The notes under the pieces were generated by a model. It searched no databases and was not told where the DNA came from. It saw nothing but the letters and a program-made list of their open reading frames with translations. Below are positions 29,018 to 57,395 of a stretch of 64,000 nucleotides of DNA, in pieces. Source of the stretch: an uncultured delta proteobacterium (GTDB taxonomy: Bacteria; Myxococcota_A; Polyangia; Fen-1088); NCBI GenBank assembly GCA_963737265.1, contig CAVTRY010000011.1, forward strand, positions 160,001-224,000. Reading direction: 5' to 3'. A program made the position numbers and the translations under genes. Within the stretch, counting starts at the first letter, position 1. Each line of letters begins with the position of its first letter.

Positions 29018-29091
29018 GGCGGGTTAGCTCAGTTGGTTAGAGCAGGCGTTTCATACGCGCCGGGCCCTCGGTTCGAGTCCGAGATCCGCCA
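29018..29091 (+). tRNA. tRNA-Met(CAT), probably elongator; CCA not encoded
   Basis: Acceptor GGCGGGT/ATCCGCC, D arm AGCTCAGTTGGTTAGAGC, anticodon loop TTCATAC, T loop GTTCGAG. Ile2 cannot be excluded. Confidence 0.92.
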
Positions 29092-29139
29092 CTATCGAGA
29101 GTTCCGCTGCTGTTCGCGCGAGTCCGCGGTGCCTAGCAA

Positions 29140-29152
29140 AATCAGCAACTTA
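29140..29152 (+). promoter_or_regulatory. IHF-binding consensus in the att arm
   Basis: AATCAG-CAAC-TTA matches WATCAR-N4-TTR; followed by TGTTTTGA x3 and GGGGACCGGGG x2. Confidence 0.55.
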
Positions 29153-29263
29153 TCGCTGTTTTGATGTTTTGATGTTTTGACTCTGCCAATGTCCGGGGGA
29201 CCGGGGTGGGGACCGGGGAGAGGCGGCCATCCCCCGCCGCAAAATCTGGTACACTTGGGGCTC

Positions 29264-29527
29264 GTGACCCTTTCTATCGAGATACCAGAGGCGACCCTTC
29301 GGGCGCTGGGGCCTTCTTCTTCCGAGGCAGAGGGCAGGGTGCGCCTTGCGGCGGCCATGAAGCTACACGAGCTGGGGCAGTTGTCGTCCGGCGCCGCGGC
29401 TGCCCTGGCTGGCATTACCAGGGTCGAGTTCCTGTACAGGCCGGGGGAGTTCGGCGTCAACGCCTTCCAAGAAAGCCCGGAAGAGCTGGCCCGCGAACTG
29501 GCGGCGTTGCGATCCACCCGTGCCTGA
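29264..29527 (+). CDS. UPF0175-family antitoxin
   Basis: RLAAAMKLHELGQLSSGAAAALAGITRVEF; overlaps a DUF3368-like start. Confidence 0.85.
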   Translation: MTLSIEIPEATLRALGPSSSEAEGRVRLAAAMKLHELGQLSSGAAAALAGITRVEFLYRPGEFGVNAFQESPEELARELAALRSTRA

Positions 29528-29610
29528 AACCGTCTCGAATACGTCGCCGCTGATCTACCTGCACCTACTGCGCCGTCTTGAGCTGCTGCCGCTTCTGTTT
29601 GGCAAGGCAG
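29520..29610 (+). pseudogene. truncated DUF3368 (PIN-like) toxin
   Basis: MPETVSNTSPLIYLHLLRRLELLPLLFG matches the family N-terminus, then similarity stops. Confidence 0.75.
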
Positions 29611-29697
29611 GCGGCAATCGCTGCGCTGGCCGGGGAGGTGAAACCGTGAAGAACTTCGCACAGGCGAAGGCTAAAAGACCGCTGTCGGATCGTCTCA

Positions 29698-29949
29698 CTA
29701 CCGGAGGCGTTCGATTTGAGTCCTCGCGCATTCCATGATGCCGAGGTGTCTGACCATCTGCTTGACCTTGCCAACCTGTATTTCTGGATTCTTTCGCGCC
29801 CCATGTTCGCCAACCGGGAGACCTGGGAACGTCTTCTCGCCGAAAGTCACGACCCAGTTGTGCGTGCGCTCTTTCCGGGTATGCCCTGGGGCACAGTGGT
29901 CAAGCATCGCCCAGATGTCGGCCAGGGCTATGGTCCCTGACGAAGACAC
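29698..29949 (-). CDS. HicA-like small toxin candidate
   Basis: 83 aa, basic, with helix-beta3-helix pattern (RTHNWVV...PVGEHG...EIQVGKVKQMVRHLGI). Confidence 0.55.
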   Translation of the reverse strand: MSSSGTIALADIWAMLDHCAPGHTRKERTHNWVVTFGEKTFPGLPVGEHGARKNPEIQVGKVKQMVRHLGIMECARTQIERLR

Positions 29950-29955
29950 GAAAGG

Positions 29956-30429
29956 CTAAGCAGCCTCTCGTATTTCGTCGAAGGAATTGTCGCTTGCGGT
30001 GGCCTGCGTGTCGATCCGCCTGACCTCGATTTTGGGTGGGCATGAATCGGCATCCATTGCCTTCAGATCCGATAGCGATAGTTTGCCCGCCCGAACAGCC
30101 GCGACGGATTGAGCCCACACGTCCAGATTTGGTTCATTCACCTCCGAGAAGAACAGTTTGACTGACTCCTCGAAAGCCTCGAATGAGGTGGCGTCCGCAG
30201 CGATGTCGAAGAAGACGGATAGATAGCTCTTCTTGAATTCGCGGAATGCTTCCGACCGCTCGCGCCCGCCTCCAGCGACACCGCCTGGCTGGACGCCAAA
30301 CATCCAGATATCCCCGTCACCTTCATCTGTCAGCAGGACTCGTCCGCACACAGCCACATAGGCGACGAAACCGTTTCCAGAAACCGCGTCTCGAAAGGAA
30401 AAAACCAGTGGGTAGGTAGTAGCGTTCAA
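29956..30429 (-). CDS. HicB-like antitoxin candidate
   Basis: 157 aa, acidic, DEGDGDIWMFGVQPGGVAGGGRERSEAFREFK resembles the HicB partial RNase H fold; 6 bp upstream of the HicA-like gene. Confidence 0.5.
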   Translation of the reverse strand: MNATTYPLVFSFRDAVSGNGFVAYVAVCGRVLLTDEGDGDIWMFGVQPGGVAGGGRERSEAFREFKKSYLSVFFDIAADATSFEAFEESVKLFFSEVNEPNLDVWAQSVAAVRAGKLSLSDLKAMDADSCPPKIEVRRIDTQATASDNSFDEIREAA

Positions 30430-30648
30430 TGGTTCCCTCTGTTCTTTAGATTCGGCACTTCTTCATGCGTTCCTAAGAATACGCCCGTTTCCCTACGTCG
30501 GAAACGCCAGAAAGGCAAGGTAGGAAAGGGCAAGGGGCGTAAGTCTGGGGGTAACTGTGGGGGTAACTGTCCAAGCGCATCGACATAAACCAGAGTAGTT
30601 TCAGCTCGTTGCGTCGCCAGTTCGATGGCGAGATCCGCCACTCCTATC

Positions 30649-30981
30649 TCAACCCGCCGCAAGGCGGGCGCACAGCGCATTCCAGTCGGGGCCGGACGAG
30701 ATCAGCAGAATGCCCGCCCGCGCGGTGAAGCGCGGATCCACGTTCTCGTTTGAATTGCAATGCACGATGATTCCCGAGACCTTGATCTCGGTGGGTTCTC
30801 CATCGAGCTGAACCAGGACGTGAATCCGAGTTCCCACCGGGCGCGCGTCCGGCATGACGAGGAGCATGCCGCGGCTGCTGGCGTTCACGATGCGCGAGTG
30901 AATCGCCGGCCCTTGCATATCCAGGCGAATAATCGCGGTGGCGTCGAGCTCCATCCGCGGTCCATCCCAGCGTCGGTCCAT
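30649..30981 (-). CDS. PilZ-domain protein
   Basis: DRRWDGPR, NASSRGMLL, VSGIIVH and AGILL motifs. Confidence 0.75.
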   Translation of the reverse strand: MDRRWDGPRMELDATAIIRLDMQGPAIHSRIVNASSRGMLLVMPDARPVGTRIHVLVQLDGEPTEIKVSGIIVHCNSNENVDPRFTARAGILLISSGPDWNALCARLAAG

Positions 30982-31023
30982 ATCAGTCAGGGAAAACCTC
31001 TGCCGTCGTCCGGGGTCGAAGCG

Positions 31024-31854
31024 CTACTTGCCGCTCGTTTCGGGCTTGGCTCCGCTCTTGGGCGCGGGGGCGCTGCGCGAGGCAGCGTCGGCGGCAGCGG
31101 CAGCGGCGGCGGCGGCGTCGGCGGCGCCCGCCGCGGTGGTGGGCAGGGCGACTCCGGCGCCACCGCCACCCGCTTGGGCGACCGGCGTTTCCGGGGTTCC
31201 CTCGGGGTTGCGATCCCACTTGTCGACGCGGCCCGAGCCGGTGGTGTCGTAGCCAACCCGGTCGAGGTGTCCGTTCTCGAAGTACTGCCATTCGTCAATC
31301 CTGCCGTCGCCGTTGCTATCCCGCTCGACCCGCACCAACTTGCCGCCCTCGTAGAACTCGAAATAGTCCGGCCTGCCGTCGAAATCCATGTCCTTCTCGG
31401 CCCGAACCTTCTTGCCCTCCTGGTAGAACGTGCGGCCGTTGAACTTGCCGTTGTAGTTCATGGAATACTCGTCCATGACCAGGTCGCCCGCCGGCCCGTA
31501 GTACTGGATGAGGTCGATCTTGCCGTCGAAGTCCAGGTCGGTCTGCTTGCAGACCAGCTGCTGCACCGAATGGCCGTCCTGGGTCGCGGAAACGAATATT
31601 TTGATGACGTCGGGCTTGCCGTCGCCGTTGGCATCCAGGGAAACCACCTGCTTTCCCCGGTCGTCGCAGCGCGAGCGGTCGAACTTGGCGCCGAAATCGC
31701 CTTGGGAAACATTAGGGTCGGAACCCGGATTCCCCGTCGGCGGCGTTTGGGTGCCCGCGCAGCCAGCAGAAACGGCGGCAATGGCGAGTCCGATCGACAG
31801 AAGACGCGCGGTCCAACCGGACGCGCGGATAGAGGGTGCGTGGAATGGGCGCAT
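31024..31854 (-). CDS. lipoprotein with DxDxDG (Ca-binding-type) repeats
   Basis: Lipobox AGC; DANGDGKPD, DLDFDGKID, DMDFDGRPD, DSNGDGRID and DTTGSGRVD repeats. Confidence 0.8.
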   Translation of the reverse strand: MRPFHAPSIRASGWTARLLSIGLAIAAVSAGCAGTQTPPTGNPGSDPNVSQGDFGAKFDRSRCDDRGKQVVSLDANGDGKPDVIKIFVSATQDGHSVQQLVCKQTDLDFDGKIDLIQYYGPAGDLVMDEYSMNYNGKFNGRTFYQEGKKVRAEKDMDFDGRPDYFEFYEGGKLVRVERDSNGDGRIDEWQYFENGHLDRVGYDTTGSGRVDKWDRNPEGTPETPVAQAGGGGAGVALPTTAAGAADAAAAAAAAADAASRSAPAPKSGAKPETSGK

Positions 31855-31943
31855 AAGCGGTAGGCTAGGCCAAGTGGACGATTGCGGCAAGGGGCAGTGA
31901 CACTTCAATTGACTATCGACATATGGTCATGCAAGGTCTTGCC

Positions 31944-32129
31944 ATGGCACGGAACAAGATTTCCACGACCGTGTACATCACCGCGGAACAGAACGAGCAG
32001 CTAAAGCTCCTGCATCACAAGACGAAGGTGCCGGTCGCGGAATACATTCGCCAAGGAATCGACTTGGTGCTGGAGCGAGAGAAAGCGCATCTTCCAGGGC
32101 AGCTCTCGCTCGATGTGGTACGCAAATAG
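31944..32129 (+). CDS. ribbon-helix-helix DNA-binding protein
   Basis: KISTTVYITAEQNEQLKLLHHKTKVPVAEYIRQGID. Confidence 0.8.
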   Translation: MARNKISTTVYITAEQNEQLKLLHHKTKVPVAEYIRQGIDLVLEREKAHLPGQLSLDVVRK

Positions 32130-32183
32130 CCCGACCAGCGCCCCCGCAAGTCCCGCAGCCAGTTCCGTAGAAGGTGTAACGAA

Positions 32184-33986
32184 GTGCCGACCCCGACCCA
32201 TCTGATTCGCAATTTCTCCATCATCGCCCACATCGACCACGGAAAATCGACGCTGGCCGATCGCCTGATCGAGTTCACCGGCGCGCTCACCCAGCGCGAA
32301 CAGAAGGACCAGTTTCTCGACAACATGGAGCTCGAGCGCGAGCGAGGCATCACCATCAAGGCAGCCACCGTGCGCCTGTCGTACAAGGCGCAGGACGGAC
32401 AAACCTACGAGCTCAACCTCATCGATACGCCGGGGCACGTGGACTTTCACTACGAAGTGTCGCGCTCGCTGGCGGCGTGCGAAGGTGCGCTGTTGGTGGT
32501 GGATGCCTCGCAGGGCGTGGAGGCGCAAACCCTGGCCAACGTCTACATGGCCGCGGAGCACAACCTGGCCATCGTTCCCGTGATCAACAAGATCGACCTG
32601 CCGTCCGCCGATCCCGAGAACGCCAGACGCGAGATTGAGGAAATCATCGGCATCGATGCCTCCGGGGCCATTCTTGCCTCGGCCAAGGACGGACGCGGCA
32701 TCGAAGAAACCTTGGAGGCCGTGGTCAAACGCATTCCGCCGCCGCAAGGAGATGCGCAACGGCCACTCAAGGTGCTCTTGCTCGACAGCTGGTACGACAG
32801 CTACCGGGGCGTGGTGTTGCTGGTGCGGGTGTTCGACGGAACCTTGCGCCTCAAACAAAAGATTCGCCTGGTCGCGGCCGGGCGCGATCACGAGATCGTC
32901 GGCCTCGGCGCGTTCGCCCCTTTCGCCAAGGACGTGGAAGAGCTCGGCCCGGGCGAGGTGGGCTTTCTCACCGCCGCCATCAAGGATGTCGCCGACGCGC
33001 GCGTGGGCGACACCATCACCGAGGCGAGCAAGCCCTGCGAAACGCCGTTGCCGGGCTTCCAGCCCGCCAAGCCCATGGTGTTCGCCGGGATTTTTCCGAC
33101 CGATCCGGCGCGCTACGTGGACTTTCGCGATGCCCTCGACAAGTTACGGCTCAACGACGCCTCGTTCAGCCGCGAGCCCGAGGTGTCGGCCGCGCTCGGC
33201 TTCGGCTTCCGCTGCGGCTTCCTCGGCCTTCTGCACATGGAGATCATCCAGGAACGCCTGGAGCGCGAGTACGATCTCGACCTCATCACCACGGCGCCCA
33301 CCGTGCGTTTTCAGGTCATCGGACGCGATGGCACGGTCACGGAGCTCGACAATCCCGCCAAATTCCCGTCGGAGGGCGACATCGAGCGCATCGAAGAGCC
33401 CATGATCGCCGCGGTCATTCACACGCCGCCCGAGTTCGTCGGCGGCATGCTCAAGCTGTGCGAGGAACGGCGCGGAACCCAGACCGGGCTAAGCTACGCC
33501 GGCGAACGCCGGGTCATGATCCGCTACGACCTGCCCCTGACCGAGGTCGTGTTCGGCTTCTACGACCGCATGAAATCCATCTCGCGCGGCTACGCCTCGC
33601 TCGACTACGAGCCCAAGGGCTACCGTGCCGCCGACCTCATTCGCCTCGATCTCCTGGTGAACGGCGATCGCGTGGATTCGCTTTCCGCTATCGTCCACCG
33701 CGAAACCTCGTATATCAAGGGTCGCGATCTGTGCGTGAAGATGAAGGAGCTTATTCCCATGCAGCAGTTCGAGGTCGCCATTCAGGCGTCGATCGGATCG
33801 CGTGTGATCGCGAAAACGGTGGTAAAAGCCCTGCGCAAGAACGTCACGGCAAAGTGCTACGGTGGCGACATCAGTCGGAAACGCAAACTTCTCGAACGGC
33901 AGAAAGAGGGGAAGAAACGCATGAAACAGGTGGGAAACGTGGAGATCCCGCAAGAGGCGTTCCTGGCCATCTTGAAGGTCGACTAG
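32184..33986 (+). CDS. lepA: elongation factor 4
   Basis: [32 protein letters not shown] and [14 protein letters not shown] motifs. Confidence 0.98.
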
Positions 33987-33988
33987 CC

Positions 33989-34966
33989 ATGCTTTTAAAT
34001 CTTCTCAAAGCCTGGCGTAACCACCGACAGTGGAGCCGCGCCAAAGCCGAAGCCAAACAACTGGTGGGCGAGACCAAGCGCATTCTCAAAAAGAAACGCT
34101 ACCGCATCCCCGAGTCGGTCGCGAGCGCGATGATGGCATCGGTCGCCGAGGTGGCGGCGGCTCGCAAGGGCGATGCCTTCGAGCGCCTGCGTTTGGCCAT
34201 CGTCGATCTGGACGGAAAGATGGACCAGCACCTGGCATTCGCGCGCAAGTCGGCCACGCGCCAGTACGCCGAATCCATCGGCCTCGCGCTCGGCGTGGCG
34301 CTACTCCTGCGCGCCTTTGTCGTCGAGGCCTTCCAGATTCCGTCGGGATCGATGATTCCCACCCTGGAAGTGGGCGATCACATTTTTGTTTCGAAGTTCT
34401 CCTACGCCGTGGGTATCCCGTTCACCAACGCCAAGATCGCCGAGCTTGGCTTGCCCAAGCGGGGCGACATCATCGTCTTCAAATACCCGCCCGATCAGAG
34501 CGTGGACTACATCAAGCGCGTGGTGGGCCTGCCCGGTGAGACCATCGAAGTCCGCCGCAACGAGGTGTTCATCGACGGTCGCCCCATGGCGCGCGAGCGC
34601 GTGCCCGGGCAGTGCACGTCGAACGACGGCCCAGGCTTCGAGGGTGAAGATGACCGCCACGACTGCGAGGTGTGGCTGGAGCATCTCGATGACAAAACCC
34701 ACGTGACCCATCAAGACCCGCGTCTCGGCCCGTCGGATTTCGGCCCGGTCAAGATCCCGCAGGGGCACTTCTTCGCCATGGGCGACAATCGCGACAACTC
34801 GCGCGACTCGCGCGTGTGGGGCTTCGTCCCCTACGAGCTCATCAAGGGCCGTGCCCTAATCGTCTGGTGGTCGCGCGATCCGGCCCGCGGCGGCCTGTCC
34901 GCCGATGGCGTGGCCGATTGGTTCAAGTCCATCCGCTGGCGCAGGTTCTTTCAGCGGATTGAGTAG
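33989..34966 (+). CDS. lepB: signal peptidase I
   Basis: IPSGSMIPTL, DYIKRVVG and GDNRDNSRDSR motifs; N-terminal helical extension. Confidence 0.95.
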   Translation: MLLNLLKAWRNHRQWSRAKAEAKQLVGETKRILKKKRYRIPESVASAMMASVAEVAAARKGDAFERLRLAIVDLDGKMDQHLAFARKSATRQYAESIGLALGVALLLRAFVVEAFQIPSGSMIPTLEVGDHIFVSKFSYAVGIPFTNAKIAELGLPKRGDIIVFKYPPDQSVDYIKRVVGLPGETIEVRRNEVFIDGRPMARERVPGQCTSNDGPGFEGEDDRHDCEVWLEHLDDKTHVTHQDPRLGPSDFGPVKIPQGHFFAMGDNRDNSRDSRVWGFVPYELIKGRALIVWWSRDPARGGLSADGVADWFKSIRWRRFFQRIE

Positions 34967-34999
34967 CGTGCCTTGGGGGCGGATGTGCCGCAACCCAGG

Positions 35000-37318
35000 T
35001 CAGGTCGAGCCTGAGGAGAAGTCGCGGAGAAAGTCTACGAGGAAGGATTCCATGGGCGACGTCGGGTGCGAGGGAATCATCCCGGTGGTGTAGCCGCGGG
35101 CCACGAACGGCGCAACCAGCGAAGGATCGCGGCTGATCACGTGGACCGGGACGGCCCAGGACGGCGAATTGTCCGTGATCTCCGAGACCGGTTGGTGGTC
35201 TCCCAAGATGACGAACAGCGAATCGTCGTCGACGAAGATCGTCAGGTAATCGTCGAGGACCTGCAGGTCGTAAAGGATGCTGGTTAGGTACGGCTCCGCC
35301 GCATTCGAGAAGTCGGGCCAGTTGGTGTGGGCCCGCTTGAGTGGATGCGTGTTGTAGATACTGCCGTCGCCGATTTGCGACCAGTCTTCGACCATGGTCG
35401 GGATGTGGCTCCAGGGGGCGTGGCTTGACACCAACACGTAGGTGACAAAGAGCGGGCCAGTTCGCTTGGCAAGAACGTTGCGGCGGGCGTAATCCATGAC
35501 GTACTGGTCGGGCATGGACGCCCACGCGAAGGCCGGGCCGGCATAGTCGAAATCCCAATTCCTGTAGACTCGATCGAAATCGTAGAAGTCGGCGGTGGGC
35601 GATGGTCGGTTGGTATTGGGCTCGACCATCGTCGTGTAATAGCCGGTATCGTGCATGAGGCGCGCCATGCTGCGTGGGTGGCTCACGCCAAGCAGGTCGT
35701 ATTGCAATTGATCGGTCGTGCGCACGCCGGTGAGTAGCGTCGCGTGTGCCAGCCACGACATTCCTCCGTAGGTCGCCGACTCCATTAGGCCCGAGGCCGA
35801 CGCGAACCCGTGACGGTCGAGGTCCGACTGCATAGCCTTGAGCGCGGGCAGGGCCTTTTCGGCGAAGGAGGGCCGATCGAGCACCGTTGCGCCGTACGAC
35901 TCGACGAAGATCAGATACACGTTCGCGTGGTGCAGGCGCTCGAGATGCGAGGGCGTGTGGTTGAGGACGTCCTGGGTTCGGGCAATGTTGCGCATTCCAC
36001 TTAAACGATGGTCATAGACATTGAGCAGGAAGGTCGCCTCGCGCTGTAGTCGCGGCACCGTGCTGGCCGCGAAGGCGCCAGCGTAGCGTTCGTTGTAGCG
36101 GGGATCCTGATCGAGAAATGCTGAAGCGATGGCAAAGGGCATTGCCAGAGCCACCAACAGCAGCACCCGGCGGCGGCGCTGGAGGTACGCCGCCGAAAAC
36201 GCGACGGCGCGATCGACGGCCAGCACCAGCAGCCCGACGACAGCGAGCGCGCCCACGACGCCCGCGTAGAACTTCCACGCGGCGAAGGTCGAATGCGCGT
36301 AACGAACCAAATCGGGGGCGAGCGGCAAGTCGATATAGAGATTGAAGAGCTTGCCGAAGTAGCGGCCGGTGACCCCGTCCCCAATGCGCAGGCCGCGAAT
36401 AAGGACGAAGAGGGCGACGATCGGAATCCGCGCGCCCCAGGGCAGTCGCCACCCGGCAAGCCCAAGGAGAGCGAACAGCGCCAACAGCAGGGTCACATCG
36501 AGAGACGGCAGAAAATACCATCCCGTCGGCTCGGTCGCGGGGTAGCGGACATTCACCATGAGATTGAGGAACGACCACGCCAGCAGGAAGAAGAGCGTCG
36601 GAGACACGTAACGCCAAGCCGCCTGCCCCGCGGCCAGCATGGACCGCGGGAGACGCCACGGACGAGGGTAGGATTGCATAAACGAATACGTGAACGACGC
36701 GCCGACGATCGCGCTGGCGAGGGCGGCAGCTAGAGTGCGGGCAAAGATGCCGCCCACGAGGAGAGCGCCCAGAAACAGGGTCGTGCTGGTAAGAAACGCC
36801 CGCCGTCCGAAGCGCGAACGCTGCGCCGCCACGCCGGTTGGAGGTGCAAGCACTAGAATCAGCACGTAGGCATAGCGAAGAGTGCCCGGGACCAGTACCC
36901 ATTCGCCCACCCCGCGGCGCAGCCAAAGGACGAGACCAAGGACGACCACCAGGGTGGCATCGGTCTCGCAGTCAAAGATCGCCCCGAATTCCGAGGCACA
37001 GCCAAAGCGGCGTGCTACCACGCCATCCACGGCGTCCAGCAAAAAGGCGGCCAGGAGCGCCACGAAAGGGACGTTCTGGCCGAGCAGCGGGAGCGCGGCC
37101 GCCACTGCCAACAGCAGCGCCAGCCGGAACAGCGTGATGAGATTGGCTGGTCCAAAGCCACCGGTCGGTGTCCAGCGACCGGCCGCACTGGCAATGAGCG
37201 CAAGCAAGGACAAGCCAGCCCCCACGCTCACCGGCCAGGCTGCGTTCAAAACCAGGGAAACCGCGTAGGCCGTCAGCACCGCAACCGCATGCATGGGCAA
37301 AGTCCAACCGCCTCTCAC
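35000..37318 (-). CDS. CDP-alcohol phosphotransferase fused to a membrane-anchored sulfatase/alkaline-phosphatase-like domain
   Basis: PANLITLFR and DAVDGVVARRFGCASEFGAIFDCETD (CDP-AP motif); C-terminal FVESYG, GGMSWLAH, SSHAPW and GDHQP; GGAGG before the GTG. Confidence 0.8.
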   Translation of the reverse strand: MRGGWTLPMHAVAVLTAYAVSLVLNAAWPVSVGAGLSLLALIASAAGRWTPTGGFGPANLITLFRLALLLAVAAALPLLGQNVPFVALLAAFLLDAVDGVVARRFGCASEFGAIFDCETDATLVVVLGLVLWLRRGVGEWVLVPGTLRYAYVLILVLAPPTGVAAQRSRFGRRAFLTSTTLFLGALLVGGIFARTLAAALASAIVGASFTYSFMQSYPRPWRLPRSMLAAGQAAWRYVSPTLFFLLAWSFLNLMVNVRYPATEPTGWYFLPSLDVTLLLALFALLGLAGWRLPWGARIPIVALFVLIRGLRIGDGVTGRYFGKLFNLYIDLPLAPDLVRYAHSTFAAWKFYAGVVGALAVVGLLVLAVDRAVAFSAAYLQRRRRVLLLVALAMPFAIASAFLDQDPRYNERYAGAFAASTVPRLQREATFLLNVYDHRLSGMRNIARTQDVLNHTPSHLERLHHANVYLIFVESYGATVLDRPSFAEKALPALKAMQSDLDRHGFASASGLMESATYGGMSWLAHATLLTGVRTTDQLQYDLLGVSHPRSMARLMHDTGYYTTMVEPNTNRPSPTADFYDFDRVYRNWDFDYAGPAFAWASMPDQYVMDYARRNVLAKRTGPLFVTYVLVSSHAPWSHIPTMVEDWSQIGDGSIYNTHPLKRAHTNWPDFSNAAEPYLTSILYDLQVLDDYLTIFVDDDSLFVILGDHQPVSEITDNSPSWAVPVHVISRDPSLVAPFVARGYTTGMIPSHPTSPMESFLVDFLRDFSSGST

Positions 37319-37725
37319 GCCCCACCTCCAAGCCGAAGCACTTGGGTTGGACCGGAGATGGCGTATGTCGCCGCTGCGTTGTGTTCCACGGCCCGCCTGG
37401 CCTTTCTTGCGTCGCGAATAGCCTTAGGATGTTCCTGACCGTGATTGGTCGCCGCGCAACACGGAACCCATGTTTTCCGGCCAAGGTGGCGTCTTGTCCA
37501 GCTTGCCGGTCACCACGTTTCCGTCGGGATGCGATCCGTTGTTCGTTTCCTGCGAACCCGCGCTATGCGGGCTCGTCGCACCTCGCGGTTTCGACCCGGA
37601 TCGCAAGTCTTTCTGCGCTAAGCCACGAATGCTCCTTCAAGCCCTTCGCGTGCGAGGTAGTGCCGACAGTGGTCAGTGCGAGATCCTGTTGCTTTGGGGT
37701 AGGTGTCACGGGAAAGTAAGCCGCT

Positions 37726-38085
37726 GTGGAGGTCATTCTCGATCAGAACGCGGACGGGACGTGGTCGTCCGTCACGTTGCCCACGGGGGCCAGGCACAAG
37801 ATCATCCTGCGGCGGCGCAAGCTGGAAATCGAGCGCCGGTACCACGACGATCGGCCGGTCGAAGGGGCGCCGTTCACTGTCGAGCTCGCGGACGGCAACA
37901 AGATCGAGGGCAAGCTGGACGAGGCTGGCAAGGCGAGTGTGAAGCTGACCGCGCCGGCCAAGCGCATTCAGTTCGGCCCCGACGAACGCGACTGGACGCG
38001 CGTCGACCAGGAAAAGAACCCCGACCACAAGGACGAGCTCGGCGATGTCGACGCCTTCGTGAACGAGCGGTTTTCGCAAACATGA
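37726..38085 (+). CDS. small adaptor-like protein (VgrG/PAAR-tail, transthyretin-like module)
   Basis: YHDDRPVEGAPFTVELADGNKIEGKLDEAGKA...IQFGPDERDW; ATGA-coupled to the toxin gene. Start uncertain. Confidence 0.6.
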   Translation: MEVILDQNADGTWSSVTLPTGARHKIILRRRKLEIERRYHDDRPVEGAPFTVELADGNKIEGKLDEAGKASVKLTAPAKRIQFGPDERDWTRVDQEKNPDHKDELGDVDAFVNERFSQT

Positions 38086-40378: not shown

Positions 40379-40390
40379 GCGCCGCGCCGG

Positions 40391-47995: not shown

Positions 47996-48005
47996 CCAAC
48001 GTATA

Positions 48006-48021
48006 CTAGGCAAATGTTCAG
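48006..48021. promoter_or_regulatory. putative LexA box upstream of the helicase
   Basis: CTAGGC-AAAT-GTTCAG, one perfect half-site of the box at 53650, 10 bp from the ATG. Confidence 0.55.
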
Positions 48022-48125
48022 CTAGCGCAAGATTGCAGAAGCGTCTTTACATATTCGCTCTGCTTTCTCACGATGAAGGTGCGGCGCTTGTTGCGCAGTG
48101 GTCGCATCGAATGACGTCCAGCGTC

Positions 48126-51100: not shown

Positions 51101-51411
51101 TTGGTGGCGGTGAGCAAACGACACAGATTGCGGTAGCCGCGCCGATCTTCCACCAGCAACAGCAGCGGCGGAGCTGGCGTGGCCGCTGCGAGCGCGACCT
51201 CCGCGCCCACGATGGGCCGCAGCCCCAGCTTGCTGGCCGCCTTGAAAAAGCGCGGCGCCCCGCAAAGACCGTCTCTATCGGCAAGCGCCAGCGCCTGGTG
51301 GCCCGAGGCGGCGGCGACCCCGGCCAAGTCCTCCGGTAGCGAAGCCCCGTCGAGAAAGCTGAAGGCCGAGCGGCAGCGCAACTCCACGTAGGGCGTGCAA
51401 GAGTCAGTCAT
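48126..51411 (-). CDS. dnaE2: error-prone DNA polymerase DnaE2 (frameshift near 49342; in-frame palindromic insertion)
   Basis: SAFSFLDGAS, QGRGSAANS, PDIDLD, HLGQHSGG, FQVESRAQ, YGFPESHA and C-terminal SHDFR. Confidence 0.95.
48572..48718. repeat. palindromic dispersed element, copy 2 (in-frame in dnaE2)
   Basis: Perfect 19-bp terminal inverted repeat TTTTCACCACAGAGAGCAC, extending to a ~42-bp stem; 147 bp equals 49 codons. Confidence 0.9.
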
Positions 51412-52897
51412 AGTAGCCGTCCAGAAACCACTGCCCGCTGGCGCGTTCTTTGTGCATGCGATACACGGCGCCGTCCGAGGCGTGCACGTCCCAGTATTCA
51501 CGGTGCAGCGGACTGCCGGTCCACCATTCCCCGCTGATGCGGTAGGGACCAGCGGCGATGAGCACGCGCGCCGCGGTCTCTTTTCCGCGAAACGCCGTCG
51601 GGCCATCGCGATTCACCAGCACTTCCACTTCCTGTGGCGGACGAAAGCGGCGCATGCCGAGTGCTGCCGCATCGCCGGGATTCGATTTCGCACCGTCGAG
51701 AATTGTTTCGGTCTGCAAATTCGGAGCATCGATCATCATCGCTTCTTCCCGCCACGTGTCCGCAACCCGCGGCGTACCGATGTATTCGGGCCCCACCATG
51801 GCGCCAAGGCGCGCCACCGTTGCCGCCAGTCGATCCGGGGCCGGGCCGTTTTGCCGTAGCATATCGAGTTGCATCGCCCGCACGCGCGCGGGGCGAACCA
51901 AGATGGTCATACCAGTCACGGGCGCCGAGGGCGCACGGCGTGACAACTCCAGCCGGATCAGCTGCAACAGAATACCGGGCTCGCGCGTGGGCGATTGCAG
52001 CGGCACCTCGCGCACCTCGAAGCCGCGCGGCTCGACGCCAAGGCGCAAGGTCAGCCCGGCGCAGGCCAGCCCGCGCCAGGCCAGCCGCGCCAGCGCCCGA
52101 TCGACAAGCCCGCGCAGCACGAAGGTCAGGGGATCGAGCGAATCGATGGCGTAGTCGAGATCGGTACCTTCCTCGACGGCGTCCGCGGGTGTCTGCGGCA
52201 AGAACGGCTCGTCATCTTGAGCGCGCGCAAGCCGCGCAAGCTTCGCGCCGGTCGCGCCCAGGCGAAGCGTGACGTCCTCCGCGCGTAGGCGGGCAAGCTC
52301 CCCCACCGTGTGCAGTCCCCAACGCGCGAGTGCCTGGGCGATTTCAGGCGGCGGTGCCAGCATGGCCAGCGGCAACGGCGCTAAAAACGCGCGAGCGGCG
52401 GCGGGCGACGGAGGAACGATGGCGATCTCGGCCGTGCGGCACGCGACGCGCGCCAGCCCCTTCGACGTGGCGATGCCCACGCGCACGTCCAATCCCAAGC
52501 GCGCGGCCCGCGTGCGCGCGGCGTGGGCCACGGCGGAAAGGTCGGGATAAAGCTGTCCCAGATCGCCCGCCTCGAAGAACACGCGTTCGACCTCGCTCTC
52601 GACCCGCGGTGCGAACCCGAGCCCCAGGTCGGCCAGCGCCGCCGCGGCCGCGTCCACGTCGGGCTGGCGCGCCGTCACCACCCGCAAGGAAGGCAGCACG
52701 CTTAGCGCCTGTCCCACGGTCATGGCTGGACGAACGCCAGCCGCGGCAGCCGTTACCGCCAGCACTTGCGCCCGCCCGCCCGCGCCCGCGGCCAGCGCGA
52801 ATGCCCCTGTGCGCTCCTGCGCACAGCCAAGAGCGCGCAGCACCGCCTGCAACGCCAGGTCGGGAGCATGAACGCAGGCAATACTGGACACGTGCAT
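51404..52897 (-). CDS. imuB: ImuB, Y-family polymerase-like protein
   Basis: GVRPAMTVGQA, FAPRVE, WGLHTVGELA, clamp motif QLDML, C-terminal GPYRISGEWW..REYWDV..WFLDGYYD. Confidence 0.88.
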   Translation of the reverse strand: MHVSSIACVHAPDLALQAVLRALGCAQERTGAFALAAGAGGRAQVLAVTAAAAGVRPAMTVGQALSVLPSLRVVTARQPDVDAAAAALADLGLGFAPRVESEVERVFFEAGDLGQLYPDLSAVAHAARTRAARLGLDVRVGIATSKGLARVACRTAEIAIVPPSPAAARAFLAPLPLAMLAPPPEIAQALARWGLHTVGELARLRAEDVTLRLGATGAKLARLARAQDDEPFLPQTPADAVEEGTDLDYAIDSLDPLTFVLRGLVDRALARLAWRGLACAGLTLRLGVEPRGFEVREVPLQSPTREPGILLQLIRLELSRRAPSAPVTGMTILVRPARVRAMQLDMLRQNGPAPDRLAATVARLGAMVGPEYIGTPRVADTWREEAMMIDAPNLQTETILDGAKSNPGDAAALGMRRFRPPQEVEVLVNRDGPTAFRGKETAARVLIAAGPYRISGEWWTGSPLHREYWDVHASDGAVYRMHKERASGQWFLDGYYD

Positions 52898-52908
52898 CTC
52901 GCGGACAT

Positions 52909-53634
52909 CTATTTCTTGCGCCGCGCTTGCGGTCGGCCGCGATCGCGCGCGGCCGCGTCGTTGTCGGGCAATTGCGCCGCCACCGAAAATTCGATGGAAC
53001 AGCAGGCGTCGTCGGCGTGGCCGCGGCTGATCTCCGCCTCGCTGCGCAGCCCTGTCAGCAGCGGCGGTGTCACGCCGAAGTTTGCCTTCCGCCGGGCGAG
53101 GTGCACCGCCACCGAAGCGAAAGCACGGACCAGCGGAAAGGCCACCACCACCAGCGCCGCCGTTTGCTGGCGTTCTGCCCCGTGGCGCAGCCGAACCCAC
53201 GCGGCGTCGGGCAGACGAGGATTCCTGTCGCCCAGATCCACCGCGACCAGATCGAAGCCGCCCGCGTCGATCAGCAACTCGGCCGCGCGCAAGGCCTGCT
53301 TGTCCGCCGCATGCACCCACAACAAGCGTTCGAGGGGCACGCCCGCCCGCGCCGCCAGGCGAGCGTCAAAGGCCTTCTCGGCATCCACCAGCGCCGCCGC
53401 GCCACCCCCCTTCAACACGCTCGCCAGCGACGCATACAAAATCGAAGTGCGCCCCGACGAGCGCGGTCCCGCAAGCTCGCTCACCCCGCCGCGCGGCCAG
53501 CCGCCGCCGAGGAGCGCATCCAGCGCGGGCAAAGTTGTTGCCACAATCCCGCGCTTCTCCTCCAGACGGCGGGCCGGGATGAGATAAGCCGACAGCGCGG
53601 CCGGAAGCTGGTCGAGCAAGAGTGCAGCAGTCAC
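52909..53634 (-). CDS. imuA: ImuA / RecA-like protein
   Basis: ALDALLGGGWPRGGVSELAGPRSSGRTS, ALVD and GVPLERLLWV; first gene of the cassette. Confidence 0.82.
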   Translation of the reverse strand: MTAALLLDQLPAALSAYLIPARRLEEKRGIVATTLPALDALLGGGWPRGGVSELAGPRSSGRTSILYASLASVLKGGGAAALVDAEKAFDARLAARAGVPLERLLWVHAADKQALRAAELLIDAGGFDLVAVDLGDRNPRLPDAAWVRLRHGAERQQTAALVVVAFPLVRAFASVAVHLARRKANFGVTPPLLTGLRSEAEISRGHADDACCSIEFSVAAQLPDNDAAARDRGRPQARRKK

Positions 53635-53649
53635 AACGGATTAGAGTAA

Positions 53650-53665
53650 CTGAACGTAAGTTCAG
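53650..53665. promoter_or_regulatory. LexA (SOS) box
   Basis: CTGAAC-GTAA-GTTCAG inverted repeat 15 bp upstream of imuA; resembles the Myxococcus LexA consensus ending in GTTCAG. Confidence 0.8.
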
Positions 53666-53690
53666 TATCAAGGCCTGGCCCGTCACGGTC

Positions 53691-54596
53691 TCAGCGCTCG
53701 GCCAGCAGCAACGCGATCCCCACCAAGACGCCGGCGAGGGCAAAGGCTTTCTTGAGGCGCTGGCGTTCGCCAAACGCGAGACTGCCCAGCGCGAAGCTAA
53801 TCACCACGTTGCCGCGACGGAGGGTGGACACCACGCTGACCAGCGCGCCGGGCGTCGCCAACGCCTTGAAATAGAGCGCGTCCGCCAGCAGCAGGAGCAG
53901 GCCCACCGCGGGGATGGCCAAGCGCATGCGAAAGGGCGTGGTGCGTGCCCGGCCAGGCAGCCAAAAGACCAGCACGAGCAAGCCCTGCAAAATCGTGTTG
54001 TCCAGGGTGAACCAGAACTGCACGTCGAGGGCCGGCAGGCGCACGGACTGAAGCAGGTGCTTGTCGTAAAGGCCGCTCCCGGCGCCCACCAAAGTGCCAA
54101 GGAACAGCGACCACACCCAAAGGTTGCGTCCGAAGTGGATCCCTTCGTCGCGGCCGATGACCGAAAAGGCAAAGTACGCGACCAGAATGACGGCGATGCC
54201 TGCCCACTGCGCCCCGCTGGGATGTTCGCCAAATAGCAGCACTGCCCCAAGCAGCGTGAACAGCGGCGCGCTCGCGCGCACGGGCGCCGCCAGCGACAAG
54301 GGCAAGTGCTTGAGCGCGAAGAAGGTCAGCACCCACGACAGCGTCACCAGCGCCGCCTTGGCCAAAATAAGCGCGTGCCCCACGGTCGACAATCCGTGCA
54401 CACGCATTCCCCACCCAGCCGCCGCGTGCGGCGCCAGCAGCGAAAACACCCCGATGGGCGCCAGCAGCACGAGCCCGCTCGCGCTGCACGCGAACAGCAC
54501 CACCAGCACCGCGTTGCCGTTTACGGAAGCCTTCTTGGCGACGTCGTAAACGCCGAGAAAAATCGCCGACAGCAGCGCGAGCAGAATCCAGGACAT
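53691..54596 (-). CDS. EamA/DMT transporter
   Basis: About 10 TM helices, YDVAKK, ALKHLPLS..P and FGE motif twice. Confidence 0.88.
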   Translation of the reverse strand: MSWILLALLSAIFLGVYDVAKKASVNGNAVLVVLFACSASGLVLLAPIGVFSLLAPHAAAGWGMRVHGLSTVGHALILAKAALVTLSWVLTFFALKHLPLSLAAPVRASAPLFTLLGAVLLFGEHPSGAQWAGIAVILVAYFAFSVIGRDEGIHFGRNLWVWSLFLGTLVGAGSGLYDKHLLQSVRLPALDVQFWFTLDNTILQGLLVLVFWLPGRARTTPFRMRLAIPAVGLLLLLADALYFKALATPGALVSVVSTLRRGNVVISFALGSLAFGERQRLKKAFALAGVLVGIALLLAER

Positions 54597-55049
54597 GAGC
54601 GCGGGCTTTATACCGGGCCTAGGCTGCGCTGAGGCGGAAAGAATCTGAGTTTTCCACCACGCGCTGCCGCCAAAGGATTCCCGTGAGGCGAGTGGCTGAC
54701 CCTCTCCAGCGTCCGAACGCCGCCGCCCCCCGACGACTCGGCCCCTCGGCGCGAGCGCTTGGACGCCGACGATCCCGGCGGAACCATCAAACTTTAGGCT
54801 CGGTTCTACTTTAGACGCGTCGACCTCGCTGCCCACCGGCCCTATTGTACGGTGCCCTCGGGCTGCTGCGCGGCTGGCGGGGCCGTGTCCTTCACCGCTA
54901 CCAGTTGACCGAGCTCTACACGTCGGTCATCCTCGCAACATGATCCATGTTTCGAAGGACACCCACCGATTCCTCGCGCGAAGGCTTCGCCTGTGGACCG
55001 GCTTCCGCAACTGCCTATGCGCTCAACAAGAAGGAAAGGAGTACGCGAG

Positions 55050-55493
55050 ATGAAACTTCTTGGCTCCGTCCTCGTTCTCTTGATGCTGACTTCGGCTTCA
55101 CTAGCGAAGAAAGCAGAAAGACGCGAGAAGAAATCCGACCCTGTTCACACGGTCAATACCCTAAAAGCCAAGGGAAAGAGTATTTCGTTTACGTGCAGTC
55201 CCACCAATTGTAGGGAACAACAAGACGGCAGTCTCTTGTTCAACTTGAGTTGTCAGACCAACAGGGAAAACGACAAGTTGGAAGTATCTGTGGGAGACAA
55301 GAGCCAAACCATCCAGTCCTACGGGTTCGTTGACATTCCCGGGGAGATAAAGGCGCCCAAGAAAGGATCTGTCCCGATCAAGATATCCGTCAGCGAGGAT
55401 GAAGGCTCCCCCCAAACGACGTTCACGTTCAAATACACCGTAGAGCAAATAAAGCGGCCCACCTGTCGAAAGTACGGTGATGTAGAGCTATAG
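55050..55493 (+). CDS. secreted hypothetical protein (lower GC)
   Basis: AAGGAG RBS, signal peptide MKLLGSVLVLLMLTSASLA, beta-rich, 4 Cys. Confidence 0.6.
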   Translation: MKLLGSVLVLLMLTSASLAKKAERREKKSDPVHTVNTLKAKGKSISFTCSPTNCREQQDGSLLFNLSCQTNRENDKLEVSVGDKSQTIQSYGFVDIPGEIKAPKKGSVPIKISVSEDEGSPQTTFTFKYTVEQIKRPTCRKYGDVEL

Positions 55494-56212
55494 CGGCCCG
55501 AATACCTTTCCCGGCTGCGGCGCGGATGACGTCAGCAGACCCCATCTTATCTCGGGCGGCGTGGGTGGCGATGGTCTCATGCGCGGGATGCTGAAGCGGG
55601 CCAATCTGCTGTTCGACGTGGACGTTCATGATGACCGCGAGATCGAGGATCGTCTCGACTCAAGGAAATCGGACGGACTACCGGTCGCAGATCTTGTGCG
55701 TGCGCCTCGAGAAAGAATCTCGGTTGGTCGGCCATTTCCGTGTGCATCGTACTACTAACGGCGGGCTTTTCCATCGGCGCGGTGGCGGGAGTGGCGGGAA
55801 GACGGGTGGGGCGGCTTCTGTCTTTGTGCGGGGACGACCATCGAACTGGCGACGTAACCAGTCGAGATGTCTAGAGTTTCTATCGATGCCATCGGGCGGA
55901 TACCCCACGGTTACCCCCAAACCCTGACCCCTTGCCCGCCAATACCTTCTCGGCAGTTTCCTTCCTCTCAAAGGTCCGAGTCTTGCGCTCGCTGTTACCG
56001 ACCCACCTCGCCAACACCGGGGCCGCAGAAGGTGCGCGCGGACCCACCCGTCGGGGATCGGCCGCCAGGGTGCCCGGACAGTCCCGCGCCTGCGCGTGAG
56101 GCCGCGCGATTCGAGGGGCGGCGGCGTGCTATGCCTCTATGCCTGCGTACCTTGAACTCTATCTTTCGGATTCACCACACTCTAAAAGTTTTTTCTTTAG
56201 AAGAAGAGTTGA

Positions 56213-56230
56213 TGCTATACTCGTATAGCA
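56213..56230. promoter_or_regulatory. TA operator palindrome
   Basis: TGCTATAC-tc-GTATAGCA overlapping a TATACT -10, just upstream of the antitoxin. Confidence 0.75.
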
Positions 56231-56243
56231 CTTAAACGGAGAC

Positions 56244-56465
56244 ATGCTCATGCTTGCTATTCGACTCCCGGAAGATGTGGAGCGGCGCCTTGCGGTTCTG
56301 GCGAAGAGAACTGGGAGGACGAAGACGTTCTACGCACGCGAAGCCATCATCGAGCACCTAGAAGACCTTGAGGACGTCTACCTTGCAGAAGCGAGCTACG
56401 CCGAGATCCGCGCGGGCGCCAAGACCATCCCTCTCGAAGACGTGTTGAAGGAATACGGGCTGTAG
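56244..56465 (+). CDS. RHH antitoxin (RelB-like)
   Basis: MLAIRLPEDVERRLAVLAKRTGRTKTFYAREAI..LEDLED. Confidence 0.88.
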   Translation: MLMLAIRLPEDVERRLAVLAKRTGRTKTFYAREAIIEHLEDLEDVYLAEASYAEIRAGAKTIPLEDVLKEYGL

Positions 56466-56477
56466 CTCTCAGCAAAG

Positions 56478-56765
56478 ATGGGCAACCGCGCCTGGACCAT
56501 CGAGTTTTCCCGTGAGGGTAAGCGGAACCTCGACGACCTGGACCGCTCGATCAGTAGGCGCATTCTAGGCTTTCTCCGTGAGCGTTTGGTGAAGCTCGAA
56601 GATCCGCGAAGTCTTGGCGAGGCACTGCACGGTCCGCAGTGGGGGGAGTTCTGGAAGTATCGGGTTGGTGACTACCGCATCGTGGCCAAAATCGAGGATC
56701 AACTGATCCGGATTCTTGTAGTCCGGATTGGGCACAGAAGTGAAGTTTACCGGGACAAGGGCTGA
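56478..56765 (+). CDS. relE: RelE/ParE-family toxin
   Basis: DPRSLGEALHG, WKYRVGDYRI and IGHRSEVY motifs. Confidence 0.9.
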   Translation: MGNRAWTIEFSREGKRNLDDLDRSISRRILGFLRERLVKLEDPRSLGEALHGPQWGEFWKYRVGDYRIVAKIEDQLIRILVVRIGHRSEVYRDKG

Positions 56766-57129
56766 ACGCCCCTGGTGTGCGACGGCGCCCAAGTGCCCTC
56801 AAAACGCGCCAGCCACTCCTCGCCAAGTCCTGTAGTGTGTTTATCGCCGAGTCGGCGCGGGAGGCCCTCAGCGCCTTCCTGTGCGCACTGGGGTCGATAC
56901 CATCGCGAAGCAACTTGCGCGCCTCGTTCCGCTTCTCGCGGGCCTCGGCCAAGGTCACCTCGGGGTACGTGCCAAGGGACAGCAGCTTCTCCTTCTTGGC
57001 GATGCGGTACTTGAGCCTCCACCACTTGCCGCCGGCCGGGGCGACCTCCAGGTACATCCCGCCGGCGTCGTAGAGGCGTGTCCGTTTCCCCGTGGGCTTG
57101 GCCTTCTTGCAAGCGGTGTCTGTGAGCAT
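56766..57129 (-). pseudogene. truncated P4-type tyrosine integrase (arm-binding domain only)
   Basis: MLTDTACKKAKP..LYDAGGMYLEV..GGKWWRLKYR..KEKLLSLGTYPEVTLAEAR..GIDP; frameshifted EEWL..WAPSH; no catalytic domain. Confidence 0.88.
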
Positions 57130-57310
57130 TTCAGGACTCCAATTGGGGGTAACTCGTTTTCGATCCTGCGAGTTACCCCCAAGGCTACCCCCCACGCGCC
57201 TGCGGCTGTCAACGAACGCAAGCGGACGTTGACGGAGCCAAAACGGCGCCAAGATGCTGGTTTCTCTGGCGGCTGCGAACGTGCGCGGCCGGGTGCGGAC
57301 CTTGGCACTG

Positions 57311-57395
57311 TGCCGGGGACGGGATTCGAACCCGTACGCCGCTTTCGCGACAGCGGATTTTAAGTCCGCGGCGTCTACCATTTCGCCACCCCGGC
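57311..57395 (-). tRNA. tRNA-Leu(TAA)
   Basis: GCCGGGG/CCCCGGC acceptor, anticodon loop CTTAAAA, long variable arm, GGTTCGAATCC. Confidence 0.95.

Follow-up and report, generated by a model that had tools for sequence, protein, structure and literature searches.

Two 1.5-kb Stretches behind tRNA-Met and tRNA-Leu Genes of an Uncultured Myxococcales Bacterium as Probable Relics of One P4-like Integrating Island Family

Introduction

The attachment (att) sites of P4-like integrases have been described as starting at the T-loop of tRNA genes, and one subfamily of these enzymes as using many different tRNAs (bioRxiv 10.1101/2020.11.02.365908). Decayed elements that have lost their integration and transfer genes and kept both of their ends, attL and attR, have been described as cis-mobilizable elements, or CIMEs (PMC5704250). 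Here we report on two stretches of approximately 1.5 kb that follow a tRNA-Met gene and a tRNA-Leu gene within 64,000 nucleotides of DNA (hereafter the window; positions 160,001 to 224,000 of contig CAVTRY010000011.1, assembly GCA_963737265.1) from an uncultured delta proteobacterium of the GTDB lineage Myxococcota_A; Polyangia; Fen-1088. The genome, G000 in our set, is 6.55 Mb in size and 99.5% complete.

The original prediction for these loci was of mini-islands carrying only toxin-antitoxin (TA) genes and sharing one att arm, whose family had been retargeted to different tRNAs and persisted either as cassettes moved in trans or as two parallel decayed relics. Our analyses indicated, with a probability that we put at roughly 0.85, that the two stretches are internal-deletion relics of one family of P4-like integrating islands. 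The shared arm is the ordinary attachment-site arm of that family and not a new kind of mini-element, because the family is found intact in related Myxococcales. Both units were classed as relics, and not as functional members of P4-type tRNA islands, because the integrase homology at tRNA-Leu stops at residue 105 of ~409 and the unit at tRNA-Met has no integrase sequence. The GC content was 52–58% within the relics versus 64–71% in their flanks.

A Shared Attachment-Site Arm

BLASTN aligned positions 30528–30628 of the window (forward strand), which we assigned as the P arm of attR in the Met relic, with the reverse complement of positions 55838–55937, the P arm of attR in the Leu relic, with 74 of 101 positions identical (73%; E = 3e-13 in the pairwise comparison and 7.9e-9 against the whole genome). 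The homology of the distal ends had been put at ~125 bp; it is real, and solid over ~101 bp. The local-alignment score of the two arms was 63, compared to 15.0 +/- 2.2 (maximum 29) for 2000 dinucleotide shuffles, and the maximum among 1,045 other stretches of the window was likewise 29. BLASTN located only two copies of the arm in the 6.55-Mb genome, each at a tRNA relic, and not the many non-tRNA copies that would have spoken for a dispersed repeat. The assignment of the Met arm was further supported by alignments with the arms of relatives, of Stenotrophomonas phage S1 and of a gammaproteobacterial island.

The Met arm consists of GGCAAGGGG, two TGGGGGTAAC repeats (30546–30555 and 30558–30567), a spacer and the T-loop-like sequence GTTCGATGG (30620–30628). 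The Leu arm has the same order on the reverse strand, with GGCAAGGGG, TGGGGGTAAC (reverse complement of 55910–55919), TGGGGTATC (55899–55907), a spacer and GTTCGATGG (55838–55846). The two arms have an identical 17-mer, CGTCGCCAGTTCGATGG, at 30612–30628 and at the reverse complement of 55838–55854; this 17-mer, GGCAAGGGG and the doubled TGGGG(G)TA repeats were all present as originally predicted. That the arm is conserved through GTTCGATGG and then gives way to tRNA-specific sequence proved to hold at several tRNAs in the relatives and at metagenome loci.

Alignment with the related islands described below revealed a common layout. The P arm of the family has two TGGGGGTAAC repeats ~67 bp upstream of the T-loop-like sequence (GTTCGATGG in the clade of islands at tRNA-Met, Arg and Leu), followed by a core of ~13 nt identical to positions 62–74 of the target tRNA. 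Behind the tRNA, the P' arm contains, in order, three GTCCGC-like repeats, a block resembling an integration host factor (IHF) site, a TTGACA stretch and GGGGGTAAC repeats, two direct and one inverted, ahead of the start of int. The repeats were conserved in register across 10 P arms, including a phage attP, and 12 P' arms. The IHF-like block, which had been noted at the tRNA-proximal ends of both loci, does align between them (29136–29163 with the reverse complement of 57238–57266) and in most of the 12 aligned islands a copy stands the same distance downstream of the tRNA, the Val, Thr and Lys islands having weak versions. Its AATCAGCAACTTA motif fits what we take to be the IHF consensus, WATCAANNNNTTR, with a G at the sixth position, and it is a predicted site.

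The TGGGGGTAAC repeats are putative arm-type sites for the conserved N-terminal domain of the integrase, and by analogy with lambda-type systems the T-loop-like sequence may be the left core-type site. Strand exchange would by the same analogy occur within the block common to attL and attR, tRNA positions 62–74, because at positions 59–61 attR has the bases of the element and attL has those of the tRNA. In the Met/Arg/Leu clade the identity to the tRNA starts at position 62, after a conserved non-tRNA TGG, in place of which the Val island, phage S1 and the gammaproteobacterial island have TAG. An inverted repeat of the T-loop-like site to the right of the core was also considered, and was dropped as it was by eye inconsistent across targets.

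Intact Islands in Related Genomes

The arm was searched for in 60 other genomes, 12 of which are of the same genus, and matches were obtained in six, five of these being same-genus genomes. A match of 22 nt to the arm was observed in G024. The same-genus species were found to hold islands of 7–16 kb at tRNA-Met, Arg, Leu, Val and Lys, and these bore out the expectation that an intact P4-type integrase with the same arm would exist and that the arm belongs to one element family with such integrases. At tRNA-Met there were islands in four of the 12 genomes: G004 (15,734 bp), G008 (9,501 bp), G002 (11,766 bp) and G010 (10,978 bp). The first three encode an integrase of 406–431 residues that starts ~200 bp behind the tRNA, and that of G010 is frameshifted. 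All four islands end in ...CAGTTCGATGG and the Met core CGAGATCCGCCAC (CGAGACCCGCCAC in G004, as in its own tRNA-Met), followed by the same PilZ flank as in the window. The far ends of the islands at other tRNAs were ...CAGTTCGATGG+CCGCCGCGCCCAC at tRNA-Arg(ccg) of G005 (10,830 bp), ...GATTCGGTGG+GCGTCCCCGGCAC at tRNA-Leu(taa) of G008 (11,896 bp) and ...GGTTCAGTAG+CTGTCCCGCCTAC at tRNA-Val(tac) of G010 (7,001 bp). The tRNA-Lys(ctt) island of G012 (15.4 kb) has ATTCGATTC+CTACTGTGCCCAC, with identity to the tRNA from the T-loop on.

Among the products of the intact islands are AlpA, either Prim-Pol and D5_N or D5_N/DUF5906/Pox_D5 proteins, and unnamed cargo. A UPF0175-DUF3368 pair stands directly before the arm in four of the eight full-length islands examined (the Met islands of G008, G002 and G010 and the Arg island of G005), and the other four have different genes at this end. 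The Met relic matched these relatives at the P' arm (86–88% identity), the UPF0175 gene (85–90%) and the P arm (78–83% to the Met arms of other species), and the integrase fragment of the Leu relic matched the Met and Arg integrases (81–85%), which placed the relics in the same family.

Comparison of the genomes also identified tRNA-Met sites that are empty. In G001, G003 and G009 (3 of the 12 same-genus genomes) the tRNA is joined directly to the PilZ flank, which rules out a single ancient tRNA-Met insertion inherited genus-wide. The tRNA-Met site of G006 is occupied by 12.6 kb of DNA without the family integrase, the arm or a repeated core. For public sequencing runs (X1–X5) the evidence consisted of Logan contigs and not reads, so that stretches without cover are uninformative. 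A contig in run X2, ~89% identical to the flank, joins position 29079 to 30629 and represents an empty site in a relative, and the best-matching run, X1, had short contigs identical to the assembled junctions.

A scan of metagenome contigs for the pattern of two repeats plus GTTCGATGG identified nine loci, at which the next bases were Met-type in five, Arg in three and Leu-type in one; none of the nine arms ran into sequence unlike a tRNA 3' end. For more distant relatives, attR was sought at 80 genome-contig loci, 43 of which on our reading have a same-strand tRNA just upstream of the integrase; within the 10 kb of flank retrieved, the repeat was present for only two of the 43, L023 (the G005 Arg contig) and L087. 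A tRNA-Ser island in a Methylococcaceae genome likewise ends in the arm layout of the family.

Two further loci were observed in these searches. In G008 there is a parallel relic at tRNA-Arg(ccg) (L018, contig C5:249929-251214), in which an integrase cut after residue ~171 is joined to a UPF0175-PIN pair that is 88% identical to that of the window and has a short internal duplication in the PIN gene. In a metagenome contig (L128, oriented positions 1184–1340) a P arm runs through the shortened Met core CGAGACCC straight into a P' arm, with no integrase behind it; this locus is either a decayed attP-like junction or a tandem remnant.

What Remains at tRNA-Met

The target gene, tRNA-Met(cat), is intact (29018–29092, forward strand; identified by ARAGORN and by Rfam RF00005 at 61.9 bits). 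ARAGORN also called a tRNA-Ala(ggc) of 96 nt nearby (28116–28211, reverse strand), which lies inside a long open reading frame (ORF), was not recognized as a tRNA by Rfam at the gathering score and is probably false. A repeat search identified CGAGATCCGCCACT, a 14-nt exact direct repeat comprising tRNA positions 62–74 plus one base, as the attL core at 29080–29093 and as the attR core at 30629–30642, both on the forward strand. At this locus the predicted tRNA 3' copy at the end of ~1.5 kb held exactly. Comparison with the metagenome contig showed that these 14 letters fit either side of the junction; counted from the end of the tRNA, the island measures 1,549 bp, and the attR core is followed by the host PilZ-domain gene (30649–30981, reverse strand). 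No tRNA was detected by Rfam in the distal copy at this locus or at tRNA-Leu.

The P' arm, delimited by the alignment of 12 such arms, is a remnant (29094–29200, forward strand) with three GTCCGC-like repeats (29101–29127) and the IHF-like block. It ends before the TTGACA stretch, and the paired GGGGGTAAC repeats and int promoter region of the intact islands are gone. In blastn comparisons, relic positions 1–146, i.e., the tRNA and ~70 nt behind it, were 86–88% identical to the same positions in relatives, relic positions 211–451 were 85–90% identical to the UPF0175 gene that lies 0.5–0.7 kb before the arm in four intact islands, and the last 120 nt matched the relatives' arms. The Met relic has therefore lost all of the DNA from the beginning of its P' arm up to the TA genes.

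The UPF0175-family antitoxin gene (29267–29527, forward strand; Pfam PF03683, 4.4e-16, 58.8 bits) is intact, and is the family's own TA gene, adjoining the P arm in the intact islands named above (the Met islands of G008, G002 and G010 and the Arg island of G005). A second UPF0175 copy, 82% identical, was observed on another contig of the genome (C11:942566-942779), with no recognizable att arm beside it. The neighboring toxin gene in the relic (29520–29738, forward strand) is gutted. BLASTP against the toxin of relatives showed that residues 1–30 and 51–59 of its product correspond to residues 1–30 and 132–140 of a 162-residue protein, which in its full-length form was assigned to PIN/DUF3368 by Pfam; the remnant itself matched no family in Pfam, NCBIfam or PHROG. 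The UPF0175-PIN(DUF3368) pair is thus incomplete, with its antitoxin intact and its toxin not.

Two conserved ORFs lie on the reverse strand of the relic, one of 157 codons (29956–30429; 45 homologues) and, downstream of it, a partner of 83 codons (29698–29949; 20 homologues), and several of these homologues sit on contigs of matching length. Neither ORF belongs to a named family in Pfam, NCBIfam or PHROG. The predicted structure of the 83-residue protein (AF2 pLDDT 88.5) was aligned by VIA-align with 1whz_A (Z 7.3) and with the HicA chains 6g26_E (5.5), 5yrz_D (5.3), 4p78_D (5.2) and 6hpb_C (4.4), all five among its six best matches and all below Z 8, under which a match may be merely a common arrangement. 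Foldseek returned no match for it at E<=0.001 and a PDB sequence profile gave none. There is moderate support, resting on these structural comparisons, for a HicA-like predicted fold. For the 157-residue protein (pLDDT 92.1) the best VIA-align Z was 5.1, with HicB N-terminal domains at Z 3.8–4.8 among many unrelated folds; Foldseek found nothing at E<=0.001, and the PDB sequence profile yielded two chance-level matches. Its nearest named atlas clusters are antitoxins (0.77–0.84, every atlas lead being below 0.9), so an antitoxin-like role is only a lead. A complex prediction for the two proteins scored 0.02 and has no bearing either way. Based on the predicted folds, the pair may represent an undescribed HicAB-like toxin-antitoxin family.

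What Remains at tRNA-Leu

The tRNA-Leu(taa) gene is also intact (57310–57395, reverse strand; ARAGORN, and Rfam at 61.1 bits), and all features of its relic other than the TA genes are likewise on the reverse strand. The P' arm (57130–57309, from its sequence and the alignment of 12 such arms) is complete, with GTCCGC-like repeats, the IHF-like block and then TTGACA, followed by two direct GGGGGTA repeats (57170–57193) and one inverted (57145–57154) just before the start of int. The integrase remnant (56815–57129) comprises the first 105 codons and encodes the Arm DNA-binding domain only (Pfam PF13356, 1.4e-29, 102.4 bits against a cut-off of 27). It is 82% identical to residues 1–105 of the G008 Met integrase, and where the homology ends the core-binding and catalytic domains (R..HxxR..Y) are gone. 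The prediction that neither unit has a complete integrase was thus confirmed by the Pfam and protein searches.

Next to the integrase remnant are two adjacent and intact TA genes on the forward strand. The first encodes a RelB-family ribbon-helix-helix antitoxin (56244–56465; NF048017, 2.9e-30, 104.3 bits against a cut-off of 50, with Pfam TraY/DUF6290) and the second a RelE/ParE-family toxin (56478–56765; PF05016, 56.5 bits against 23; TIGR02385, 36.3 bits against 27.9). With an antitoxin gene of this type adjoining one for a RelE/ParE-fold toxin, and both above curated cut-offs, this is a type II pair. The predicted TA-only cargo of the two loci was confirmed in part, with RelB/RelE at tRNA-Leu and, at tRNA-Met, the UPF0175 antitoxin, the gutted PIN toxin and the two-gene module of no known family.

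The attR core of the Leu relic (55826–55837) is degenerate, reading TCGTCCCCGCAC versus CCGTCCCCGGCAC in the tRNA. Eight nucleotides are exact, and the rest differs by one substitution and one missing G, so that the predicted copy of the tRNA end is present here in a damaged form. We counted it as attR only because it stands directly after the shared GTTCGATGG. Its first base, T for C, recurs in an independent metagenome arm (L130).

The DNA beyond this attR core was variable among the genomes. In every relative the flank at 54900–55511 maps to other contigs, and what follows tRNA-Leu varies between genomes. We observed that 54900–55550, which has a low GC content (49–53%) and a 166-codon ORF, has counterparts of 82–88% identity in all relatives, which lie on different contigs and away from tRNA-Leu; the tRNA-Leu neighborhood has therefore been rearranged or is variable in the genus. 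In G001, G004, G006, G010 and G012 there are extra copies of the 3' 52–56 nt of tRNA-Leu(taa), 8–44 kb from the gene, which suggests islands of another integrase class that use the anticodon-loop sublocation of that tRNA.

Integrase Relationships and Changes of Target

The integrases of the islands at tRNA-Met, Arg and Leu were 75–88% identical to one another. For a maximum-likelihood tree, integrases were extracted as uninterrupted frames of at least 250 residues with the N-terminal motif of the family, and 18 of the 20 extracted were used, with the G000 Leu fragment and the G085_C1 fragment dropped; also outside the tree were G010_Met (frameshifted), G008_Arg (truncated), G006_C56, G030_C137, G080_C162, G085_C35 and G000_C18. 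The Arg and Leu enzymes were located inside a clade, starred in the tree (100/98), that otherwise consists of Met enzymes. On this tree Met needs three target changes, and the starred branches force at least two. Retargeting within one family, as had been proposed from the two loci, is supported because the Arg and Leu enzymes nest inside the Met enzymes; the route put forward with it, via the conserved T-loop, is plausible.

Compared domain by domain, the Met enzyme of G002 and the Arg enzyme of G005 are 89/83/91% identical, and the Met enzymes of G008 and G002 are 89/86/91% identical. The Leu fragment of the window shares 85% of its residues with the Arg enzyme, 81% with Met enzymes and only 74% with the Leu enzyme of G008, and its arm is 73% identical to the Met arm of the window, 46–66% to the other aligned arms and 53% to the Leu arm of G008. 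Different lineages of the family have therefore captured tRNA-Leu(taa) on two or more occasions, or modules have been swapped between these lineages. In the Leu enzyme of G008, which goes with an arm of the variant GATTCGGTGG, divergence is greatest in the core-binding region (68–76%, versus 89–91% in the catalytic domain).

We speculate, tentatively, that integrases of this clade read a T-loop-like core site common to tRNA genes and that the ~13 nt of attP that follow are a swappable address. The near-equal likeness of Met- and Arg-serving integrases and of two Met enzymes would fit this idea, as would the taking of tRNA-Leu by two different lineages and the homology of the P arm right up to position 61. 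If this speculation is correct, a swap of the core alone would suffice for retargeting, and relics that retain arms and cores would offer the next relative to arrive a ready landing pad or would travel with it as passengers.

The supply of integrase in the window's own genome was also assessed. The PF13356 profile had one match in the whole genome, which is the Leu fragment, and together with the protein search it identified no intact integrase of the family. A third integrase relic was observed by protein search on contig C18 (35741–36256, residues ~168–321), directly behind tRNA-Val(tac), with no P' arm, N-terminal domain, catalytic end or repeated core within 20 kb.

Decay of the Islands and Alternative Explanations

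Under the reading that we favor, islands of one P4-like family would have been inserted at both tRNAs and would have left attL-to-attR remnants. Intact members combine an integrase that has an Arm DNA-binding domain with the regulator AlpA, a primase-helicase of the Prim-Pol/D5 type and cargo that varies. A crossover within the 13-nt core would restore the tRNA at attL, and attR would be left with the P arm and, after it, the tRNA end that was displaced; this would explain why each relic closes with the shared arm and then the 3' sequence of its host tRNA. Internal deletions then took int (the whole gene at tRNA-Met and all but 105 codons at tRNA-Leu), alpA, the replication genes and most of the cargo, with TA genes surviving at both loci. 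As no intact integrase of the family is left in the genome, the relics would therefore be immobile. Of the two fates originally proposed, that of parallel decayed relics was favored by the intact islands of 9.5–15.7 kb with the same arm at the same tRNA-Met in relatives, by the 85–90% match of the TA gene, by the 105-codon integrase remnant and by this lack of an integrase.

Several observations count against so simple a history. The RelBE pair had no blastn or tblastx match in the eight other islands searched (the Lys island was outside this set), and the module of 157- and 83-codon ORFs had no counterpart in the relatives' islands searched. Because of these two, the history is not one of pure decay, and both sets of genes are later arrivals or came from unsampled members of the family. 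Independent decay also does not predict the shared CGTCGCCAGTTCGATGG, which is exclusive to the two arms of this genome, the other arms examined differing in the 8 nt before CAGTTCGATGG; a common donor population and local sequence exchange are possibilities. At tRNA-Leu, the degenerate core was missed by an ungapped repeat search allowing up to two substitutions and is not callable alone, and the boundary has no empty-site control, with the chromosome beyond attR non-syntenic with that of any relative.

The other proposed fate, TA cassettes moved in trans, is a form of the explanation that comes closest to ours, in which both units are non-autonomous, CIME-like cassettes mobilizable in cis or in trans by the integrase of an incoming full-length relative. 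Both units do retain attL and attR with recognizable arms, all 14 nt of the Met core repeat match and the Leu P' arm is complete; the genus has full-length relatives whose integrases are 81–85% identical to the Leu fragment over the first 106 residues, and empty sites are known among them. By definition, CIMEs are moreover decayed elements in which attL and attR persist and which are able to move after accretion (PMC5704250). Nevertheless, we consider such mobility unlikely, given that the family integrase is nowhere intact in this 99.5% complete genome, that each unit is single, with no second copy in its own genome, and that no unit of the same gene content was present among the islands and loci examined. 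From the P' arm of the Met unit the three integrase-proximal GGGGGTAAC repeats are also missing, and the Leu core is damaged by its substitution and deletion. The contigs of the best-matching run showed the assembled form only and no circle junction, evidence that by its nature cannot exclude rare circles.

The likeness of the two arms might instead have arisen within the genome, by gene conversion or an old rearrangement that copied one arm onto the other across the 26 kb between the loci. The Leu arm is indeed nearer to the window's Met arm than to any other aligned arm, and they alone have the 17-mer, but an identity of 73% is far below that of a recent conversion tract and the Leu arm is less like the Met arm than are the Met arms of other species. 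In addition, the same first-base change of the core occurs beside a Leu-type arm on an independent metagenome contig, and the Leu relic owns an integrase remnant and a P' arm, so that we regard copying as quite improbable. The least credible explanation is that the arms resemble each other by chance, as a generic genomic repeat or through tRNA-like constraint, and not by common descent. The last 9 nt, GTTCGATGG, do look like the T-loop of a tRNA, and runs of G occur in this GC-rich genome. Against this, none of the 2000 shuffles and none of the 1,045 other window stretches came near the observed score, the genome has two copies only, the likeness peaks at the TGGGGGTAAC repeats, some 70–100 nt from the tRNA-like stretch, and the arm is in register in 10 aligned arms, a phage attP among them. 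The copy count, the arm alignment and the shuffles together refute an origin by chance or as a generic repeat, leaving this explanation with a negligible probability.

Comparison with Known Systems

The main value of the relic assignment is for annotation, as two puzzling insertions of 1.5 kb are explained as relics of a P4-like family active elsewhere in the genus, and the attP layout of this family is usable for delimiting such islands in an uncultured Myxococcales genus. The islands are also a natural series of related integrases with five tRNA targets, in which the arms are constant and the short core alone varies, and which could serve experiments on how P4-type tyrosine integrases choose and change their targets. 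The relics in turn show what outlasts the decay of an island, namely att sites and TA genes.

The family resembles P4-type (CP4-57-like) islands in the Arm-DNA-bind_3 N-terminal domain of its integrase, in the AlpA and Prim-Pol/D5_N proteins of the intact relatives, in insertion at tRNA 3' ends with a short direct repeat and in the use of many tRNAs by one integrase subfamily. It differs in that the copies in the window have no mobility gene at all. Unlike the Met/Arg/Leu clade, the Lys island and phages Piluca and Attikon1 match the tRNA from the T-loop on; the integrases of these phages are 47% identical and are associated with a different repeat. The family also resembles phage S1 (NC_011589), whose integrase is 52% identical. 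The attP of S1 has two TGGGGGTA repeats with the same period and at the same distance from TAG and the tRNA 3' end, and GGGGTA repeats, direct and inverted, just before int. Outside the repeats the S1 arm is 41–49% identical to the arms of the family, and, unlike the relics, S1 is a temperate phage of 40 kb with its P and P' arms contiguous in one molecule.

Like CIMEs, the two units have lost integration and transfer genes and kept attL and attR, with the P' arm partial at tRNA-Met and the core damaged at tRNA-Leu. In contrast, the CIMEs described in PMC5704250 derive from Firmicutes families of integrative and conjugative elements and integrative and mobilizable elements and were shown there to move by accretion; no tandem with a full element is present in the genome studied here. 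The TA genes are comparable to the type II systems of other mobile elements (RelBE, UPF0175-PIN/DUF3368 and HicAB), with RelB and RelE above curated cut-offs, and depart from them in the gutted PIN toxin at tRNA-Met and in the 83-codon ORF, for which the HicA-like call is a qualified one based on Z scores below 8. As att sites of P4 integrases at the T-loop, the use of multiple tRNAs and CIMEs have all been described already, the loci are therefore two relics of a known kind of island. The family goes slightly beyond the textbook picture in its conserved non-tRNA TGG or TAG before the core, in the near-identical integrases that serve different tRNAs and in the fixed position of a TA pair beside the P arm.

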